From assembly GCA_003483855.1 (NCBI GenBank), contig DMXP01000005.1:29202-93201 (forward strand): 64,000 nt of DNA, in the 5' to 3' direction. Positions 3,471-37,772 of this stretch are shown here, piece by piece. Within the stretch, counting starts at the first letter, position 1; each line of letters starts with the position of its first letter. This DNA comes from Candidatus Yonathbacteria bacterium. Lineage in GTDB: Bacteria; Patescibacteriota; Minisyncoccia; Phycocordibacterales; UBA1550. The notes under the pieces are model-generated. The model searched no databases. It had not been told where the DNA came from and was given only the letters and a program-made list of their open reading frames with translations. Position numbers and translations under genes: made by a program.

Positions 3471-6400
3471 TTATTTTTTCTTATTGAGCGAAATGTCGAG
3501 TGAGAGCCCGCGTAGATAATTTAGAAGCACATTGAACGACTCGGGGATATTTGTGCTTGTGATGTCGTTGCCTTTCACAATAGCGTCAAATGCTTCCGAA
3601 CGACCTGAAATATCGTCTGATTTAATAGTGAGCATTTCACGAAGGACATGCGATGCGCCGTAACCTTCCAGAGCCCACACTTCCATTTCTCCAAAACGCT
3701 GACCTCCACCTTGCGCCTTTCCGCCAAGTGGCTGTTGCGTGATGAGAGAGTACGGCCCGATTGAACGCATGTGGATCTTGTCTTCCACCATGTGGTTTAG
3801 TTTCAAGATGTACATATAACCAACCGCAATATCCTGATCAAACGAGTCTCCAGTGCGTCCGTCAAAGAGTGGCATCTTGCCGTCCTCGCGGTAGCCTGCC
3901 TTCACGAGCTCGCCCTTAATTTCCTCAACTGTTGCTCCCATAAACGGAGGTACGATTGCCTGATAGTTGAGCGTGTGCGCGGCTAGACCCAAGTGAAGCT
4001 CAAGAATTTGTCCCAAGTTCATACGAGAAGGCACGCCGAGCGGAGTAAGCACAACATCAATAGGTGTACCGTCTGCCATGTATGGCATATCCTCCTCAGG
4101 AAGGATTACAGAAATAACACCCTTGTTACCGTGACGTCCCGCAAGCTTGTCGCCCACAGAAATGTTACGCACCTGAGCAACTTCAATGTGAATTTTCTTG
4201 ATGATACCGCTGTCTAGCGCATCGCCCTTTTCGCGCGAGAATACTTTCACACCAATCACGCGTCCACGCTTGCCGTGATCCATGCGAAGCGAAGTGTCTT
4301 TCACGTCGCGAGCCTTGTCTCCGAAAATACTGCGAAGGAGTCGCTCCTCAGGGGTCAATTCTGTCTCACCCTTTGGCGTAATCTTTCCAACCAAAATATC
4401 TCCTGGGTGCACCTCTGCGCCAATACGAATGATGCCGTCTTCGTCCAAGTCTTTGAGCTTGAGCTCACCAACGTTTGGAATATCGTGAGTTGTAACCTCG
4501 GGCCCGAGCTTTGTGTCACGCACATTCACAACAAACTCGTCCATGTGAATAGAAGTAAACTTGCTGTCCTTTACGAGACGCTCCGAAAGAATGATCGCGT
4601 CTTCGTAGTTGGAACCTGCCCATGACATAAACGCAACGAGCGCGTTTTGCCCGATAGCAATCTGACCATTGTCTGAAGACGAAGTGTCAGCAAGTACAGC
4701 TCCCTTCTTCACCTTGTCGCCCACGTTTACAATAGGACGCTGATGGAATGCTGTGAATCCGTTTGTTCGTGAGAATGTTACAAGCTTGTATGAATGTTCC
4801 TTCCCATCTCCACCCTTCAAAACAATTTTTCTTGAATCCGAATGAGTGACAGTGCCATCCACATCCGCAATAACGAGACGACCTGTGTCGCGAGCAGCCA
4901 TTCCCTCCATACCTGTTGCAACCAGCGGAGCCTCTGGCACAACTACTGGGATTGCCTGCTTCTGCATGTTTGAACCCATGAGCGCGCGGTTTGCGTTGTC
5001 GTGTTCCAAAAATGGAATCATGGATGTAGCTACCGAGTATGCTTGGTTTGCTGCGATGTCCATGTAGTGCACATCCGCGCGGTCTACAAGCTCTGGGTGT
5101 CCAGCGCGACGAACCTCAACCTTCTCTTCAACAATGCTGTCACCATCCATTTTCAAAGACGCATGCGCGATGTTGTATTGCTCTTCTTCTAACGCATCCA
5201 TGTACACGATTTCTTTTGTGGTCTTGCCGTTCTTCACCTTTACATAAGGCGTTTCAATCATTCCAAAGTCATTGATGCGCGCATAGCAAGAGAGACGGAG
5301 AATAAGACCGATGTTTGGACCTTCTGGAGTGTGGATAGGGCAAAGGCGTCCGTAGTGCGATGTGTGCACGTCGCGAACTTCAATACCAGCGCGTTCGCGA
5401 GTGAGGCCACCTGGCCCAAGCGCTGAAAATGTGCGGAGAAGCTCAATTTCAGAAAGCACGTTGTACTGACTCATAAACTGAGAGAGCTGGTTTGTCGCAA
5501 AGAATTCCTTTAGTCGCGCCTGAAGCGGGCGAGGAGAAATAAATTGCACAGGCATTGTGGCGTCGGTATCAATTGTGGACATTCTGTCCTGAATATTACG
5601 CTTCATCTGTGTCATACCCACGCGAATCTTTTGCTGGAGCATTTCACCTACAGAGCGAATGCGACGGCTTCCGAGGTGGTCAATATCGTCTGGAAGAGCG
5701 CGAGGGTCTGCGTTTAGCTTTACGATGTGCGAAACGATTGTTGCAACATCACTTGCATCAATAGTGCGTCTTGCAATATCATCTTTATCAAGTCCTTTTC
5801 CAAAACGCTTGTTAAACTTAAAGCGTCCTACTTCTGATAGGTCATACTTCTCCTTTGCAAAAATAGAGTTCACGAAACCGCGAGCATTTTCTGCTGTTGC
5901 AAGGTCGCCATCGCGAAGCTTCTTGTGAATTTCAATAAATGATTCGTCAGGAGTAAGAGCGAGGTCTTTTGCGAGAGTTGCTTCAATCACCTTCTTTACC
6001 GCTTCGTCTTTCTTTGCAAATGCTTTTAGAATTGCTTCATTGTTTTCCAAACCAAGAGCGCGAAGAAGCACGGTTACAGGGAACTTGCGCTTTTTATCAA
6101 TACGCACGTACACCGCTCCGTCTGGATCGGACTCCACCTCTACCCATGCGCCACGGCCTGGGATAATTTTTGCGCCGAAGTAACGCTTGCCCTTGAGCTC
6201 GTCTACGGTGAATGACACACCGAATGAACGAGAAATCTGTGGCACAACCACGCGTTCAACCCCGTTCACGATAAATGTACCGTGCGAGGTCATCATAGGA
6301 AAATCCGCCATAAAGATTTCCTGCTCTTTCTCACTCTTAAACGTTTTGTTTATAAGTTTTACGCGCGCTTTGAGAGGCGCTTCGTAAGAGAGGTTGTTTT

Positions 6401-25123: not shown

Positions 25124-26392
25124 ATGGATCAATTCACTGAAAAAACAGAAGTGCAACAGAAGGTAGCGTCAAAACTTGAAGTAAAGACAGACCACAGTCT
25201 TTCTGCTTGGGACCTGCTCAAACTCTCCCTTCGAGTTTTTCGCACAAAACCAACACGTACTATTTTAACAGTACTTGGTATGTCCGTTGGTATCGGTACT
25301 GTCGTTTTTCTTGTGTCTCTTGGTTATGGGCTTCAATACATTTTAATTGGTAACCTAATTACTAGCGAGGACTCCCTTATGACACTAGAAGCAGCATACC
25401 CAAGCGAAGCTGGAAAAAGTATTGACCTTGAGAAAATGGATGAAATAAAAACAATGGAGGAAGTGGACGCAATAAGCCCTGTCACAGAATTCTCTGGCGA
25501 ACTTTCTATTGCTGGTGGAGCTCCAGGCCTTATCCCTGTGACTCGTGTCGTTCGTTCATCATATTTTAGATATGCAGGAGTTTACCCAGATATTGGAGAT
25601 GTATTTAGCGAGGATAACCCTGGAGCTGTTTTATCAATACAAGCATTGAAACTTCTAGGCCTCAATGTAGATGAATCGATTATTGGGAAAGAGGTTTCTG
25701 GAAAAGTTTATTACCCAAAACAAGACGGAAGCACAGAAGAGGTAATTATTTCTAAACTGCAAATTCGTGGAGTTATTACTGACGAAAATGAACCGCCTCT
25801 TGCGTACATTCCCTACTATTCAGTCTCGAAAGAGCCAACTGCTCTCAAGAGTTTACTCATCAAAGCGCGTAATGTTGACCTTGTTGAACAACTGCGAGAT
25901 AAATTAGATAAAGAAGGTTTCCTCGTGAGCGCGAAAATTGACCTAGTGAATCAAGCGCGAAAAATCACAAACGCTATAACAGTAGTCCTTATGGTTTTTG
26001 GCACAGCCGCTCTTATCGTGTCCGCTATTGGAATGTTCAACACTATGATAGTCGGCTTTCTTGAACGTATTTACGAAGTGGGGGTTATGAAATCCCTCGG
26101 CGCGACAGACGGCGACGTGCAAAACCTGTTCCTTATGGAATCCTTCATCATCGGATTCTTGGGAGGGCTCTCTGGAGTCGCTATCGGTATGGGGGGAGGA
26201 TCAGCCATAAACTTTGTGATGAGTACTCTTTCTCAAAACCTAGGAAGCAAGGCACTTACACTTTTCATCACACCAGCGTGGTTTGCAATTTCAACTATTA
26301 TTCTTTCCTCGTGTATAGGAATTATTTCCGGCGCTTTGCCTGCAAGAAACGCATCCAAGCTCTCACCGAGAGAAGCATTCGTGAGAAAATAA
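25124..26392 (+). CDS. ABC transporter permease (FtsX/MacB-type)
   Basis: N-terminal TM, large periplasmic domain, then three C-terminal TM helices with the FtsX pattern (MKSLGATDGDVQNLF). Confidence 0.8.
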   Translation: MDQFTEKTEVQQKVASKLEVKTDHSLSAWDLLKLSLRVFRTKPTRTILTVLGMSVGIGTVVFLVSLGYGLQYILIGNLITSEDSLMTLEAAYPSEAGKSIDLEKMDEIKTMEEVDAISPVTEFSGELSIAGGAPGLIPVTRVVRSSYFRYAGVYPDIGDVFSEDNPGAVLSIQALKLLGLNVDESIIGKEVSGKVYYPKQDGSTEEVIISKLQIRGVITDENEPPLAYIPYYSVSKEPTALKSLLIKARNVDLVEQLRDKLDKEGFLVSAKIDLVNQARKITNAITVVLMVFGTAALIVSAIGMFNTMIVGFLERIYEVGVMKSLGATDGDVQNLFLMESFIIGFLGGLSGVAIGMGGGSAINFVMSTLSQNLGSKALTLFITPAWFAISTIILSSCIGIISGALPARNASKLSPREAFVRK

Positions 26393-31071: not shown

Positions 31072-31197
31072 AAAACTAAAAAATTGTTTTAGATACGAGG
31101 AGCCTAGAAATTTTTTGAGGATGATGTACAGGCAGTACTTCGACGAGAAAAATTTCGTAGTGACAAAGTAGATGAAATAATTTTTTAGTTTTCTACA
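31069..31197. repeat. 18-bp inverted repeat pair flanking the udg/atpC convergent intergenic region
   Basis: gtagaaaactaaaaaatt (31069-31086) and aattttttagttttctac (31180-31197). Confidence 0.3.
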
Positions 31198-31432
31198 AAA
31201 TGACTGTCGCCTCATTATGAGCCACTTCCAATATCCCACTCTCCACAGGAATTACAATTTCCTTGCCTTCGCTGTCAACAATTTTTAGAACACCATTTTT
31301 GATAGGTGTCGCAAGAGGCGCATGGTGAGGAAGAATGGTAAGGTCACCTATACTACCAGTGCATGACAAACTCTCTGCTTCTCCTTTAAAAAGCACTTCG
31401 TCCACTTTTGCGATGGTTAGCTTCATTGACAT
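31193..31432 (-). CDS. atpC: ATP synthase epsilon subunit (beta-sandwich only, no C-terminal helical hairpin)
   Basis: 79 aa. MKLTIAKVDEVLFKGEAESLSCTGSIGDLTILPHHAPLATPIK follows immediately after atpD. Confidence 0.8.
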   Translation of the reverse strand: MSMKLTIAKVDEVLFKGEAESLSCTGSIGDLTILPHHAPLATPIKNGVLKIVDSEGKEIVIPVESGILEVAHNEATVIL

Positions 31433-31433
31433 A

Positions 31434-32834
<1,401 letters not shown>

Positions 32835-32959
32835 CTAATAAATCTTCCTCAATTAGTCTGAACTCTATCATTTTTTACCCAAAAAACCAAGCCAAAAAAA
32901 GGAGAATTTGGGATGTGGATAACTCAACCTATAAAAGTTGCCGTTTATTCGCAGATAGT

Positions 32960-33025
32960 ATATATTATAGGTATTAGGGCTTCGGCCTCCGAGATACCCG
33001 TCACCGCAAGGTGGCGGGTATCGAT
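32960..33025 (+). ncRNA. candidate plus-strand structured RNA (UUCG and GCAA tetraloop hairpins) antisense to the mazF-like 3-prime end
   Basis: ggc-TTCG-gcc hairpin at 32978-32987. An 8-bp + 4-bp stem capped by GCAA at 32993-33023. Preceded by TTGCCG-17nt-TATATT (32936-32964). The canonical tetraloops exist only on the plus strand. Confidence 0.25.
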
Positions 33026-33041
33026 GTTTACGGACGAGCCC

Positions 33042-33455
33042 TTAGGTATATATTCGGAAGGCTTCAACTACTCTATCAAATTCACTTTGATTAACAGTGT
33101 CCACCTTACGCAATAACCTATTATTACTAATCACGCGTGCTTGAGTAAGTTTAATCCAGACAGGCTTCGTATATTCCTCTTCCGTTTTACTATTTTTAGC
33201 TTGTATCTGAATCTCATAATGAAAGCCATCTAGTTTCTCTTTGCTCGTTATCGGTAGCACGAGCATGGTTTCTTTATTATACACTCGCACAACCAAAACT
33301 GGCCGTTCAAAATTTTCATTTTTGCCATCAACTTCTGCTCCGACATTTACACCAAGAGCGCACCACCATACTTCACGAGGATACGCATACGCTTTCTTTC
33401 CCGAATCACCTAAATTCTTTTTCTGTGAATTCCAAGCATCAAACTCTTTTTTCAT
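33042..33455 (-). CDS. MazF/PemK-family endoribonuclease toxin-like protein (no adjacent antitoxin gene)
   Basis: YPREVWWCALGVNVGAEVDGKNENFERPVLVVRVYN...MLVLPITSKEK...LTQARVISNNRLLRKVDTVNQSEFDRVVEAF aligns with MazF/PemK (RGDVY.ADL.PVVGSEQGGVRPVLVIQND...LEQIRTIDKQRL..). Confidence 0.75.
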   Translation of the reverse strand: MKKEFDAWNSQKKNLGDSGKKAYAYPREVWWCALGVNVGAEVDGKNENFERPVLVVRVYNKETMLVLPITSKEKLDGFHYEIQIQAKNSKTEEEYTKPVWIKLTQARVISNNRLLRKVDTVNQSEFDRVVEAFRIYT

Positions 33456-33591
33456 ATAGGCTCAATTATATCACGATTAATTATAGATAATTAAAGGTAC
33501 CTGACACCTTTCCCCTCCTTTTCTTCATATAGACATAACAAACTCCCAGCAATTGCTGAGAGTTTGTTATTAAATACACAGACCCCTTTAC

Positions 33592-34272
33592 TTATTTAAC
33601 GACCGCAGCATCCAACACAGCCTGCGCCTCCACATTCCCATTCTTTGAGGAGAGGGTTACCTCTGTAGGGGTAACAACGCCTCCAGAAGGAGGTAACACT
33701 GCTACTGATTTTATTTCATTCTCTATATCAGAAACAAAGCGACTTCCACTAAACATTTTGTGTAAATGCGCCAACTCTTCATCCCCTACGCCAATTTCTC
33801 CATTAACACTTACGGTGTATTTCCCTTGCGTCCAACCATTTACCGTAAACGCACCCAAGGAATCTCTTGTTAGGAAAACGAGGACACGATCGCCAGCCTT
33901 AAACGAAGGAGACCCTTCGACAATCATTTTTGTACCGCTTACCGAACCACCAAGAGTTTGAACAGCTAGCGTTTGAGAGGTGATGTTTTCTGGGTTATAA
34001 AGATACTTTTCAACCTCCAAAGTTACTGTAGAAACTATATCTTCTTCTCCTTCTCTAATTTTTGATGGATACTTACCACTTCGCACACTGCTTACCCTTG
34101 CAATAAGAGCCACTGTAGAACTTCTAATAAGCTCTTCTTTACTAATTTCAGCCAAAACTGCGTGCCCAACCACCGATGTCGTTTGGCTTGCTCTGGGTAA
34201 AAAAACATACACTCCCATACTTGCACCAATCACTACTAGCGAAATAATAACGGGCGAGATATTTCTTTTCAT
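33592..34272 (-). CDS. secreted hypothetical protein (signal peptide)
   Basis: MKRNISPVIISLVVIGASMGVYVFL signal or anchor. No recognisable domain. Confidence 0.55.
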   Translation of the reverse strand: MKRNISPVIISLVVIGASMGVYVFLPRASQTTSVVGHAVLAEISKEELIRSSTVALIARVSSVRSGKYPSKIREGEEDIVSTVTLEVEKYLYNPENITSQTLAVQTLGGSVSGTKMIVEGSPSFKAGDRVLVFLTRDSLGAFTVNGWTQGKYTVSVNGEIGVGDEELAHLHKMFSGSRFVSDIENEIKSVAVLPPSGGVVTPTEVTLSSKNGNVEAQAVLDAAVVK

Positions 34273-34311
34273 AAGTTGCGAGATAAATTAATTATTAATT
34301 AAAGACAAAAA

Positions 34312-34872
34312 TTAAGGGTACACGGCGTTTATTCCACTCAAGTCATCCGCAACGAGAGTACGCTTTTTAGTTTCACCAGTTCCGACATAGCCATACATCG
34401 TTTTTTCTGTATCTCCGCCACCATATAAGTCATTCAACATAAGAAAATGCCCGAATTCATGCGTTGCGACATTCTGCACATCATACAATCCAGGAGCCCC
34501 AGAAGTTGACCATGAGTAATAACTATTAAACACTAGATCGGTGTCTGTTATTGTAGACCCAGAAGAAGTAACTGTTGTTAGGGCAAGTGCTCCTGCGCCA
34601 AAATTTGAAACAGTGATATCGTTGTTTGATGTTCCAGCAGAAAAAGTAAACGGCGACGATGCCCCATTCCAAGGAGTCATCCCTTGTGCAATCGGTGTAA
34701 TCCACGAACTTGGTATACTTGGACTTCCAAAATCAGCAGTGGTTCCATTTGTTGACCACTTTACGCCAGCATATGAATATGCAGAAACGAATGACGGGAT
34801 CATTAAAACCAGCAACATCGTACCAAAACCAAAACTGAACATTTTTTTGAGAATTAACGTATTTCGAAGCAT
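34312..34872 (-). CDS. secreted zinc metalloprotease, snapalysin/matrixin-like (HExxHxxxxxD)
   Basis: Signal peptide, then ATHEFGHFLMLNDLY. This reads H-E-F-G-H-x5-D, the spacing of the snapalysin M7 zinc site HETGHVLGLPD. Confidence 0.7.
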   Translation of the reverse strand: MLRNTLILKKMFSFGFGTMLLVLMIPSFVSAYSYAGVKWSTNGTTADFGSPSIPSSWITPIAQGMTPWNGASSPFTFSAGTSNNDITVSNFGAGALALTTVTSSGSTITDTDLVFNSYYSWSTSGAPGLYDVQNVATHEFGHFLMLNDLYGGGDTEKTMYGYVGTGETKKRTLVADDLSGINAVYP

Positions 34873-35060
34873 AATTGAATTATTTATTAATTTTACATTG
34901 ATAGTATCTGCGCATCGACCATTACACTACAGTGTAGTAAAAAAAACTGGGTTTAGTAAATCCGCAACTGTGGACAACCTAAAAACCATTGAATAACCAC
35001 GGAACCGAAGCTAGTCACAGATAGGAAACGGGTACGGTTCACTGTCTCATTATATTTTAC

Positions 35061-35232
35061 CACTCCCCACTCCTCGTGCGAGGGATGCCTCTTGTGTGGG
35101 GACTTGCGAGCGTGAACCCAGGGTCATTCTGCTGAATGAGACGCTCACACGAGGACGATTTAGTAAAATCGCTCTTGGAGCTTTTCTAGCAAGAAAATAT
35201 CCGTACCCCGCACAAGACGGCTCCCGAGCTAT
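35061..35232. repeat. copy B of a ~170-bp palindromic (MITE-like) structured element
   Basis: Shares cctcttgtg[c/t]ggggacttgcga...cacgaggacgatttag[c/t]aaaatcgc...gcttttcta...atatccgtacc...cacaagacg...cccgagc with 53918-54086. The arms are mutually complementary. Confidence 0.5.
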
Positions 35233-36155
35233 TTCATCGCTTCAATCCCCCCGATAATCTCACTCATCTCTCTTGTAATCGCGCCTTGTCGGGCTTTGTT
35301 GTACTGACGCGTGAGTGAGAATGTAACTTCCTCGGCCTTGTCAGAAGCATTTCGCATCGCGACCATTCGCGCCGAATGCTCGGACGCCTTTGCTTCCAGA
35401 AAAGCATGGTGGAGTTCAATAGCGAGAAGTCGCGGAATGAGTGTCTCAAACACCGCCTCTGGCGATGGCTCAAACAAATAGTCAGCCGGCGCCGATTCCT
35501 TTTCAATATCAACATTTGTTTCGGCAAACGCGCCCTTCTCTGGCACGATGCCCTTTATCATTGTTGTGAGTCCCTCCACAGAGAGGGGGAGCAACGAGCG
35601 CGAAACTGGTTCCTGTTCAAATGTTGAGCGAAAGTTTGTGTACACTAGCATACACTCGTCGTACTTCCCATTTGTAAACAAGTCAGTAATGAGCGACACG
35701 ACCCCAGAAAAATCACCGATGGCGCTTTCGTCTTTCATTGTTTCAATATGCTTTTCCATAATATACCCTCGGCGCGCAAAAAATTCTTCCCCTTTGCGAC
35801 CGATAGCAATAACACCTGTGTTCTCGCGAGAAATGTATCTGTCCGAGAGAGAAGACAGGGCGCACTTTGTAGCCCCACTGTTCAGTCCTCCAGCAAGCCC
35901 TTTGTCGCTCGTCACAATAACAAGGAGAATGCGACTCACTGGACGCACAGCTACGAGTGGGTGACGAGCAATATCAACTGAGTGCGAGATGCGAGAAAGA
36001 ATACGAAATGCCGCCATAGCATATGGACGCGCTGTAAGCGCGGACAACTGCGCCTTGCGCATTTTTACACCAGAAACAGCCTCCATAGCTTTTGTGACTT
36101 GGTGCGTCTTTTGCACAGAGCGTATTTTTCCTTTTATCGCGCGGAGGGATGACAT
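35229..36155 (-). CDS. atpG: ATP synthase gamma subunit
   Basis: MSSLRAIKGKIRSVQKTHQVTKAMEAVSGVKMRKAQ and C-terminal ITREMSEIIGG. Confidence 0.9.
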   Translation of the reverse strand: MSSLRAIKGKIRSVQKTHQVTKAMEAVSGVKMRKAQLSALTARPYAMAAFRILSRISHSVDIARHPLVAVRPVSRILLVIVTSDKGLAGGLNSGATKCALSSLSDRYISRENTGVIAIGRKGEEFFARRGYIMEKHIETMKDESAIGDFSGVVSLITDLFTNGKYDECMLVYTNFRSTFEQEPVSRSLLPLSVEGLTTMIKGIVPEKGAFAETNVDIEKESAPADYLFEPSPEAVFETLIPRLLAIELHHAFLEAKASEHSARMVAMRNASDKAEEVTFSLTRQYNKARQGAITREMSEIIGGIEAMK

Positions 36156-36200
36156 TTGGGTAGGTGTTAGTTTGTAGGTTTTAGTTTTTAGAAAATGCTA

Positions 36201-37772
36201 CTAGTGAACGATAAAAAGTTCTGGGTGCGATGTTACAAAATCCGCAAGAGCGAGTTTCAAATTTGCCTCAGTTTGCTCTGAAATCGCGTGCTCCTTTTTG
36301 ATTGCATCCACAATGCCCTTTGCATGATGATCAAAGTATTCTGAAAGTTTGTCCTCAAAAAGACGCATGTCCTCAACCTTGACCTTGTCAATAATTCCGG
36401 AGATGCCAGCAAAAATAACGATGACTTCTTTTTCAAATGAAAGCGGTTTCCCGTTTGTCTGCTTCAATAGCTCCGAAAGACGTCGGCCTTTTTCAATACG
36501 ATCTTTTGTTTCCTTGTCCAGGTCAGACGCAAACTGCATAAAAGCTTCAAGTTCGCGAAATTGCGCAAGCTCCAAACGAATCTTCCCAGCAACTTTCTTC
36601 ATCGCTTTTGTTTGCGCATTTGATCCAACGCGTGACACCGAGAGACCAACGTTTACCGCAGGACGCATGCCTTTGTTGAAAAGATCAGTGTCCAAATAAA
36701 TCTGTCCGTCGGTTATGGAAATCACGTTTGTGGGAATATACGCTGACACGTCTCCTTGCTGTGTCTCAATAATAGGAAGCGCAGTTAGTGACCCACCACC
36801 GAGTTTGTCCGAGAGCTTTGCGGCGCGCTCAAGAAGACGCGAGTGCAAATAAAAAATATCTCCCGGATACGCCTCGCGTCCAGGTGGACGGCGAAGTAGG
36901 AGCGACATCTGGCGATACGCAACAGCGTGCTTAGAAAGGTCGTCGTACACAACAACCGCATCTTTCCCTTTCAACATAAAAAATTCACCAATTGTCGCGC
37001 CTGTAAATGGAGCGAGGTATTGAAGCGCAGCCGCTTCCGACGCCCCAGCGACAACAACAATCGTGTACGCCATAGCTCCACGTTCCTCAAGCTCGCCCAC
37101 GATGCGCGCGATCTTTGACTCCTTTTGACCAATAGCAACATAAATACAAATAGGGCGTGTTTCTTTTGGCTCTGTGATTTGGTTTAAAATAGTATCAAGG
37201 GCGATGGCGGTCTTCCCTGTGCCACGGTCGCCAATGATGAGCTCGCGTTGTCCTCGCCCAACTGGAATCATAGAGTCAATAGCTTTGATGCCAGTGTGCA
37301 CTGGCGTATCCACTCCTGCGCGGTCAATAACTCCAAAAGCGATGCGCTCAATAGGCATTCTATCTTCTTCTTTGATCGCCCCCTTGCCGTCTACAGGCTC
37401 GCCGAGCGCATTCACAACACGACCAATCATTCCAGTTGATACGGGGATAGAAAGTGTTTTTCCTGTGCCTTTTACAATCATCCCTTCAACAATACGCTCC
37501 GCGCCAGACAAAATAACTGCCTTCACATAGTCCTCCTCTAGGTTAAGAACGAAACCAACAATCGGTTCCGCATCAAGGGTATCATTGAGTGTCTTTTTGC
37601 CAACATGTTCAAAAACAACCATTTCCGCCATCATCGCGTTTTGAAGTCCGTCAATCTCAGCGATGCCGTCGCCTGCCTTCACAACAGTGCCAACACGCTC
37701 CACTGATGTCTTTGGTTCAAGCGCTTCTATTTCCTTTCTGATTTTTTCTATGAGGATTGTGTTCATGGTCAT
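36201..37772 (-). CDS. atpA: ATP synthase alpha subunit
   Basis: [18 protein letters not shown] (P-loop). 523 aa. Confidence 0.95.

Follow-up and report, generated by a model that had tools for sequence, protein, structure and literature searches.

The window analyzed here is a 64,000-nucleotide (nt) stretch of contig DMXP01000005.1 from the Candidatus Yonathbacteria (Patescibacteria) assembly GCA_003483855.1, with positions numbered from its first letter. It carries a toxin gene of the MazF/PemK family and, convergent with it, a predicted gene for a small RNA in which two hairpins, H1 and H2, flank the linker UCCGA (Table 1). An earlier note on this DNA had pointed out a toxin, a promoter, and hairpins on the opposite strand, and each of these elements is present where it had placed them. 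The toxin quite probably has a dedicated RNA partner or antitoxin, and the toxin-RNA module appears to be undescribed. The 5' end of the RNA was inferred at 7 nt past the -10 box, and the 3' end was inferred from the hairpin and U-tract.

Table 1. Features of the toxin-RNA locus and its gene neighborhood in the window
Feature	Positions	Strand	Basis or remark
MazF/PemK-family toxin gene, 137 amino acids (aa)	33042-33455	-	
Extended -10 box of the toxin gene, TGATATAAT	33465-33473	-	Read from the sequence; ends 9 nt ahead of the ATG
Predicted small RNA, ~58 nt: 5'-AUUAG, H1, UCCGA, H2, GAUGUUUA-3'	32973-33030	+	Covariance model; convergent with the toxin gene
Sigma-70-type promoter: -35 TTGCCG (32938-32943), 17-nt spacer, -10 TATATT (32961-32966)	32938-32966	+	Promoter scan, 9/12 matches
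H1: 3-bp helix with UUCG tetraloop (GGC-UUCG-GCC)	32978-32987	+	Seen in the sequence
Single-stranded linker UCCGA, candidate recognition site	32988-32992	+	Invariant alignment columns
H2: 13-bp helix with one U·G pair and GCAA loop	32993-33022	+	Hairpin search and folding
U-tract after H2	33025-33029	+	With H2, predicted intrinsic terminator
DnaA-box-like 9-mer, TGTGGATAA	32914-32922	+	Precedes the -35 of the RNA by 16 nt
Gene for a 226-aa protein with N-terminal hydrophobic anchor (membrane-anchored or secreted)	33592-34272	-	Directly upstream of the toxin
M10-like metalloprotease gene	34312-34872	-	
atpG	35229-36155	-	
atpA	36201-37772	-	
atpD	31434-32816	-	Followed by atpC, also on the minus strand

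A solitary toxin of the MazF/PemK family

The toxin, which is 100% identical to protein HAS84859.1, matches the Pfam family PF02452 (PemK_toxin) with an E value of 4.4e-17 and 62.7 bits (cut-off, 23.1). The profile of the toxin family matches Bacillus subtilis MazF/EndoA (1ne8 and 4mdx; E=3.7e-8), and the AlphaFold2 model (predicted local distance difference test score of 78.5) consists of an extra N-terminal helix (residues 5 to 17), a MazF barrel, and a C-terminal helix. A Foldseek search of this model against the PDB returned MazF for all of the top 50 matches (E about 2e-6; probability, 1.0). The arginine R51 of the motif FERP is invariant in the family and aligns with the catalytic arginine of MazF (R25 in B. 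subtilis and R29 in Escherichia coli), and the conserved P68-x-T70 aligns with the catalytic threonine or serine (T48 and T52). Because the Pfam match, the profile alignment, the predicted fold, and the retained catalytic residues agree, the protein is considered a true MazF-family member that looks catalytically competent. The N-terminal helix, which canonical MazF lacks, holds the conserved motif K-DFD-WN-KK.

A profile search of the protein database found 1,810 clusters of the toxin subfamily at an E value of at most 1e-5, with Patescibacteria as the only source of the best 120 matches. Homologous loci were collected from genomes (80) and metagenomes (80); nearly all of these 160 come from Patescibacteria, and their toxins are 33 to 87% identical to that of the window. 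No open reading frame (ORF) recurs beside the toxin in 78 loci, where the largest cluster of neighbors, ABC ATPases, is seen five times. ORFs of 45 to 130 aa that lie on the same strand and end within 60 nt upstream of the toxin are present in 28 of 142 loci, and none of them is recurrent; similarity to MazE or PemI was not found in the window or the loci, using approximate query sequences. The description of the toxin in the earlier note, a MazF/PemK protein with no adjacent antitoxin, therefore holds, and judging from gene content, the toxin family is solitary throughout, in unrelated contexts. In Wolfebacteria (loci L084 and L001), a 109-aa ORF ends 11 nt upstream of the toxin; by eye it looks like a RelE/ParE-type toxin and not an antitoxin.

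The spacer upstream of the toxin in the window (33456 to 33591) is without a credible ORF. Its sole ORF encodes 32 aa from a GTG, or 15 codons from an ATG, in line with the upper limit of 15 codons that had been given for this region, and the protein encoded upstream, predicted there to be secreted and not an antitoxin, indeed bears a hydrophobic anchor. The 32-aa ORF overlaps a perfect 16-bp hairpin (33529 to 33560), which is located just past the gene for the 226-aa protein, has a U-tract on neither strand, and is followed by a promoter-like GTGTCA-16-TATAAT at 33507 to 33480.

The mRNA of the toxin is predicted to be essentially leaderless because an extended -10 box lies close to the ATG and no Shine-Dalgarno sequence was found ahead of the window toxin. 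The sequence TGTGATAyAAy is found at the same position in L081 and L083, and a TGnTAnAAT box lies 6 to 9 nt ahead of the toxin ATG in many loci, most of which are without a Shine-Dalgarno sequence.

Conservation, structure, and strand of the small RNA

The RNA was searched with a covariance model, R1, built from 25 sequences, none of them from the window. R1 scores the window RNA at 54.3 bits (E about 1e-20), as the sole full-length copy in the 64 kb, and it finds full-length matches antisense at the toxin 3' end in 143 of the 160 loci (70/80 genome and 73/80 metagenome loci), all of these from Patescibacteria and with toxins 33 to 100% identical. Those without a match are mostly contigs cut at the toxin or variant forms that are visible by eye. 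In about 0.9 Mb of flanking sequence, high-scoring copies occur only beside toxin copies, and extra RNA copies accompany extra toxin copies. The RNA gene travels with the toxin, which supports, as far as computation reaches, the RNA-antitoxin or antisense logic put forward in the earlier note. Judged by these matches, the pairing generalizes to a large family that is widespread in Patescibacteria, with analogous RNAs on Campylobacterota plasmids.

Comparison of the downstream regions of all loci revealed an architecture that persists even where toxin identity is only 33%. In the orientation antisense to the toxin, a -35 box TTGAC(A/T) and a -10 box TAtAaT, ~17 nt apart, are followed after ~6 nt by a short 5' tail, H1, UCCGA, H2, and a terminal CG(A)UUUUUUA, the UUA of which is the complement of the toxin stop codon. 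The motif CUCCGAG (with at most one mismatch) is found in nearly all loci; the UCCGA columns and the helix-closing bases are invariant, while the sequence of H2 varies freely. Pairing statistics were calculated on 97 distinct sequences. In H2, 98.4 to 98.5% of the cells are paired, compared to about 50% in slid controls, compensatory changes occur at all 10 modeled pairs, and cells with double changes number 252 versus 70 in shuffles, so that the covariation analysis suggested beforehand favors a conserved helix. RNAalifold independently predicts the same structure. H1 also covaries in distant loci (GGC/GCC, GGAC/GUCC, GUCCC/GGGAC, GCUUCC/GGAAGU, and GCAUCCC/GGGAAGC); the loops there are of the UNCG or GNRA type.

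The toxin coding sequence of the four closest loci is 77 to 81% identical to that of the window, while the 58-nt RNA has zero or one difference (98 to 100% identical). The stretch of strong conservation among close loci starts just past the toxin stop codon and reaches the plus-strand promoter at its -35, where the homology between the window and L081 stops. By these measures the small RNA is under purifying selection, with an apparent constraint stronger than that on the toxin coding sequence. Two H2 substitutions in close relatives keep the pairing on the plus strand (G·U to A-U and G-C to G·U), whereas on the minus strand both result in C/A mismatches.

The direction of transcription is indicated by several features. 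Read antisense to the toxin, H2 contains 30 to 42 G·U pairs across the alignment versus at most 7 C·A pairs, and GNRA loops cap it in 51 of 75 cases versus 5 of 75 in the toxin-sense orientation, which agrees with the earlier proposal that the UUCG and GNRA loops exist only in the plus-strand reading. The plus strand of the window also folds better (-38.6 kcal/mol, z = -4.5) than the minus strand (-33.6 kcal/mol, z = -3.7), because its one U·G pair becomes a C/A mismatch on the latter. The plus-strand promoter that had been recognized by its hexamers was recovered by our scan, and promoters with at least 10 of 12 consensus positions are present in 65% of 84 loci versus 1.2% of shuffles. The -35 is TTGACT or TTGACA in 63 of the 84 loci, and the -10 ends 20 to 23 nt ahead of CUCCGAG in 62 of them, a spacing that places the start of the RNA at AUUAG (~32973 in the window). 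Among close relatives, the -35 varies (TTGCAA and TTGATA) and the -10 is invariant. The 9 nt after H2 contain a mean of 4.8 T. Because of the G·U bias, the GNRA loops, the positioned promoter, and the T-rich tail, the element is predicted to be a self-contained gene for an RNA of ~55 to 60 nt that converges on the toxin gene.

Several other identities of the hairpins were considered and rejected. They do not form a repeat element, as H2 is unique in the window, where none is expected by chance. The alternative that they form a 5' leader of atpD is excluded, since in loci that lack atpD the toxin is followed by this RNA all the same. Searches of Rfam 15 found no family that matches the small RNA (window at an E value of at most 10 and nine related loci at an E value of at most 1), with sub-threshold chance matches only. 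Carriage by phages was rejected as well: at least 120 exact matches to GGCTTCGGCCTCCGAG were found in viral contigs, all with scores of at most 26.6 bits and none with H2 or a toxin gene nearby, and these matches are due to chance. On the toxin-sense strand, inspection by eye revealed no conserved start codon that would make the GGAGG a Shine-Dalgarno sequence followed by a small ORF.

The relation between toxin and RNA genes varies among loci. Tandem arrays in L019 (2992 to 4399) and L139 (2053 to 3337) include up to three toxin copies, with an RNA after each. Two tandem RNA copies behind one toxin are found in only 3 of 160 loci (L021, L024, and L026), and no obvious promoter separates the two copies in L026. 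In L006, the closest genome locus sharing gene order with the window, the toxin ORF (4007 to 4321) is N-terminally truncated and encodes 104 aa from residue 32, and despite this its small RNA (4320 to 4377; 56.4 bits) is intact. In a further group (L032, L035, L039, L046, L055, L058, L126, L131, and others), the usual stop codon is missing and toxin ORFs of 145 to 155 aa run through the antisense RNA gene, so that coding sequence and RNA overlap completely.

Known systems and possible modes of action

MazF/PemK toxins are the textbook case of control by a protein antitoxin. The module found here has a toxin of this family, yet it lacks the protein antitoxin of type II systems, the geometry of type III systems, and the usual kind of type I toxin. 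Its likeness to the type II systems MazEF and PemIK (Kid-Kis) is limited to the toxin, that is, to the Pfam family, profile, predicted fold, and catalytic arginine and threonine. The defining feature of type II, a cotranscribed gene for a protein antitoxin (MazE/PemI, AbrB or RHH fold) beside the toxin, is absent, as no MazE/PemI-type or other recurrent protein antitoxin gene accompanies the toxin. In addition, the toxin has an extra conserved N-terminal helix, and a leaderless, monocistronic mRNA is predicted for it, whereas MazF is encoded behind its antitoxin in a shared operon.

Type III systems (ToxIN, CptIN, and TenpIN) resemble the mechanism favored below, in which an endoribonuclease toxin would be neutralized by a small structured RNA, and ToxN has a fold related to Kid/MazF. 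However, type III antitoxins are tandem direct repeats processed by the toxin and encoded upstream on the same strand, with a terminator between them and the toxin gene, while here one RNA unit, equipped with a separate promoter and terminator, converges on the toxin gene from downstream, and the toxin belongs to PF02452 and is not of the ToxN/AbiQ type.

The layout resembles that of type I systems with antisense RNAs that are convergent and overlap the toxin gene at its 3' end, such as txpA/RatA and bsrG/SR4 of B. subtilis and Fst/RNAII of the par locus of Enterococcus faecalis, which share a cis-encoded RNA converging on the toxin 3' end. The toxins of type I systems are usually short hydrophobic peptides (<60 aa), in contrast to the 137-aa soluble RNase with a MazF fold predicted here. 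Furthermore, the RNA barely overlaps the coding sequence, it holds a motif that stays invariant across deeply diverged loci, something not required of a cis-antisense RNA, and the toxin lacks a Shine-Dalgarno sequence or 5' element to target. Type I toxins need not be membrane peptides, as illustrated by the nuclease SymE of the SymE/SymR system. RalR of the RalR/RalA system is likewise a nuclease (PMC8594479).

Two further cases share single features with the module. The conserved RNA structure known as the pemK motif (RF02913; Weinberg et al. 2017, PMC5737381) is named after pemK, but it does not match the RNA in the same Rfam searches of the window and nine related loci. This motif is presumably associated with pemK-family toxin genes in Firmicutes, and Firmicutes homologs of the toxin, sought for a comparison with it, were not found in the plasmid collection. 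The antisense RNA aMEF also acts on a toxin-antitoxin locus, E. coli mazEF, but it tunes a normal MazE-MazF operon (PMC8749433). Literature searches for a MazF/PemK toxin with an RNA antitoxin returned only unrelated cases, namely, aMEF (PMC8749433) and the E. faecalis mazEF locus that adjoins txpA (PMC3074167).

We infer that the RNA is transcribed and serves as the antitoxin of a compact two-gene module with no protein antitoxin. In the proposed model, a MazF-fold endoribonuclease would be produced from an essentially leaderless mRNA, and the convergent, strongly promoted gene would provide a ~58-nt RNA with two very stable hairpins, the second of which would double as a terminator at or beside the toxin stop codon. 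Neutralization would primarily be direct, with the exposed UCCGA between the hairpins occupying, as a pseudo-substrate, the RNA groove of the toxin dimer. Loss of the module or an end to transcription would let the RNA decay and thereby release the RNase. A likely secondary effect is that the RNA would form a duplex with toxin mRNA that reads through H2, to which it is fully complementary, leading to cleavage by RNase III and destabilization of the toxin message. This complementarity exists only where toxin transcripts read through H2, and such read-through is likely, given that H2, when read in the toxin sense, lacks a U-tract.

Direct, type III-like neutralization by RNA binding is our tentative preference and falls somewhat short of being probable. 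It is favored because neither UCCGA nor the helix-closing bases vary, in contrast to the freely changing sequence of H2, a constraint that pure cis-antisense action would not impose. UUCG and GNRA tetraloops are poor initiators of kissing-loop contacts in antisense RNAs, no Shine-Dalgarno sequence is available for masking, and pairing of the RNA with the 5' region of the toxin was not found (mean z, -0.14; P = 0.13), all of which also argue for direct binding. A trans target in the toxin coding sequence was rejected, as TCGGA shows no positional conservation (40 occurrences versus 28 expected). The binding of short single-stranded motifs of 3 to 7 nt by MazF proteins (PMC13107127) is a further reason to favor direct binding. 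The more specific claim that the RNA presents the toxin's own recognition sequence between tetraloop hairpins, as an uncleavable or slowly cleaved decoy that would define a previously unrecognized class of toxin-antitoxin system, is possible but is held with more reserve.

Several observations weigh against direct binding by the toxin. The invariance of UCCGA is only suggestive of recognition by the toxin, which leaves the motif a candidate site, and the RNA is not arranged like the upstream, same-strand tandem repeats of type III antitoxins. The RNA had been expected to run over the toxin stop codon. In the window it ends at ~33030, 12 nt short of that codon (33042 to 33044), because of a window-specific insertion of ~13 nt; the expectation does apply to most relatives, in which the U-tract overlaps the stop codon. 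The convergent 3' geometry is kept on Campylobacterota plasmids with a different RNA sequence, as cis-antisense action predicts, and on a Campylobacter jejuni plasmid a similar RNA cassette faces an unrelated ORF, showing that such cassettes are not exclusive to MazF-like genes in Campylobacter.

The insertion, GGGCTCGTCCGT at 33031 to 33041, separates the toxin stop codon from the RNA terminator and is missing in relatives; in the minimum-free-energy fold it pairs with the 5' GGGCUU of the RNA.

The best-surviving alternative, which we consider somewhat unlikely, is a pure cis-antisense mechanism of type I character, in which the RNA would pair with the 3' untranslated region of read-through toxin mRNA and RNase III would cut the duplex, so that the protective 3' hairpin is lost and the mRNA is degraded with no contact between RNA and protein. 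About 140 loci retain the convergent layout in which the RNA terminator adjoins the toxin stop codon, and this fits the mechanism, as do the expected read-through of toxin transcripts carrying the full complement and the precedent of type I systems with nuclease toxins. The strongest point in its favor is the recurrence of the same design despite unrelated RNA sequence: downstream of toxin homologs with 27 to 40% identity on Nitratiruptor, Helicobacter, and Campylobacter plasmids lies a consensus promoter with two or three hairpins whose sequence is unrelated, and on C. jejuni pVir the convergent promoter and hairpins come after the stop codon of the toxin-family homolog. R1 does not match the Campylobacterota loci L161, L162, and L164, and homology between their RNAs and the Patescibacteria RNA was rejected on this ground; the design is analogous, with sequences that are not detectably related. 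Cis complementarity, however, leaves the invariance of UCCGA and of the H1 architecture unexplained, the tetraloops are poor start sites for pairing, and the RNA overlaps little or no coding sequence. With neither a Shine-Dalgarno sequence nor 5' pairing, decay from the 3' side would be the only route left, which would be leaky control for a catalytic RNase.

It is considerably less likely that the RNA is not an antitoxin at all but a promoter-bearing terminator or insulator, or a small RNA with another target, the toxin being an orphan, neutralized in trans, or harmless through low expression. H2 with its U-tract is a plausible terminator, and the related cassette of C. jejuni plasmid pCJ419 (locus L285, 1300 to 1400) faces an ORF that does not encode a MazF. 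A plain terminator, however, needs no consensus promoter at a fixed distance, no conserved H1, and no invariant linker, and it would not be expected to be more constrained than the toxin coding sequence or to have its high-scoring copies only beside toxins; a MazE-like gene that might act in trans was found neither in the window nor in the loci. The pCJ419 cassette is of the pVir type, with a TATGATATAAT promoter and the same hairpins (93% identical), and it converges on the end of an unrelated 142-aa ORF without a Pfam domain, just after the rep gene.

Improbable, too, is a ribonucleoprotein with a role outside toxin-antitoxin biology, in which the MazF-like protein would use the RNA as substrate, guide, or cofactor; a processed RNA might, for example, direct or gate RNA cleavage in phage defense. 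Specific co-inheritance, the invariant single-stranded motif, and the conserved N-terminal helix that canonical MazF lacks would suit such a particle, but no further conserved genes accompany the toxin-RNA pair, the loci are scattered and sometimes in tandem arrays like toxin-antitoxin modules, and there is no guide-like variable single-stranded segment, as only the H2 stem varies. Least probable is a function as DNA, in which the element would be the recombination or attachment site of a mobile toxin cassette, much as an attC hairpin closes an integron cassette at its 3' end: toxin and element do move jointly between unrelated contexts, the L081 homology does end at the promoter -35, and an RNA-motif search method can, according to its authors, also uncover single-stranded DNA motifs (PMC5737381), but the strand-specific G·U pairing, the GNRA and UUCG loops, the positioned sigma-70 promoter, and the U-tract point to a transcript, no recombinase recurs nearby, and inspection by eye, with no formal test, showed no attC-type core sites.

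If the toxin is controlled by RNA, then a large MazF subfamily blurs the boundary between type I, type II, and type III systems, and many "orphan" MazF annotations in candidate phyla radiation genomes would be explained. A well-supported RNA family of ~55 nt without an Rfam entry would also be added. The toxin and its 58-nt RNA form a compact pair that is directly testable in E. coli, and the invariant UCCGA provides a concrete guess at the recognition sequence of the toxin.

Campylobacter pVir, the DnaA-like box, and the ATP synthase operon

The type I pair CjrA/CjpT of C. jejuni pVir is described as a toxin-antitoxin locus with an antisense RNA (Shen et al. 2016, cited in PMC10470494; PMC7826846). 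A validated antisense small RNA of pVir, CJpv2, maps to 25244 to 25412 in the IA3902 plasmid (PMC5447181). In 81-176 pVir, this position falls in an unannotated gap of 477 nt (25227 to 25704; 1728 to 2205 in locus L163) that coincides with CJpv2, lies about 5 kb away from the PemK-like gene, and contains small hydrophobic ORFs of 35 to 58 aa on the minus strand. We tentatively take CJpv2 to be CjrA, and the gap is probably the CjrA/CjpT type I locus. CjrA/CjpT was therefore set aside as a characterized member of the toxin-RNA family, since given the distance of the CJpv2 gap from the PemK-like gene it is probably a different locus.

Upstream of the -35 of the RNA, the window contains a 9-mer that resembles a DnaA box. 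In 25 of 84 loci (including L102, L096, L087, L022, L111 to L113, L030, L147, and L145), a 9-mer within one mismatch of TTATCCACA/TGTGGATAA directly precedes the -35, a frequency about ten times the background of 0.03 per 90 nt. The box may be a regulatory site that couples expression of the RNA to DnaA status, and it is uncertain whether it belongs to the toxin-RNA module.

In the window, the ATP synthase operon (31193 to 37772, minus strand) is interrupted between atpG and atpD by the metalloprotease gene, the gene for the anchored 226-aa protein, and the toxin-RNA module. The toxin is located downstream of atpG in L006 and L083 as well, and in L081 it occupies a different context.

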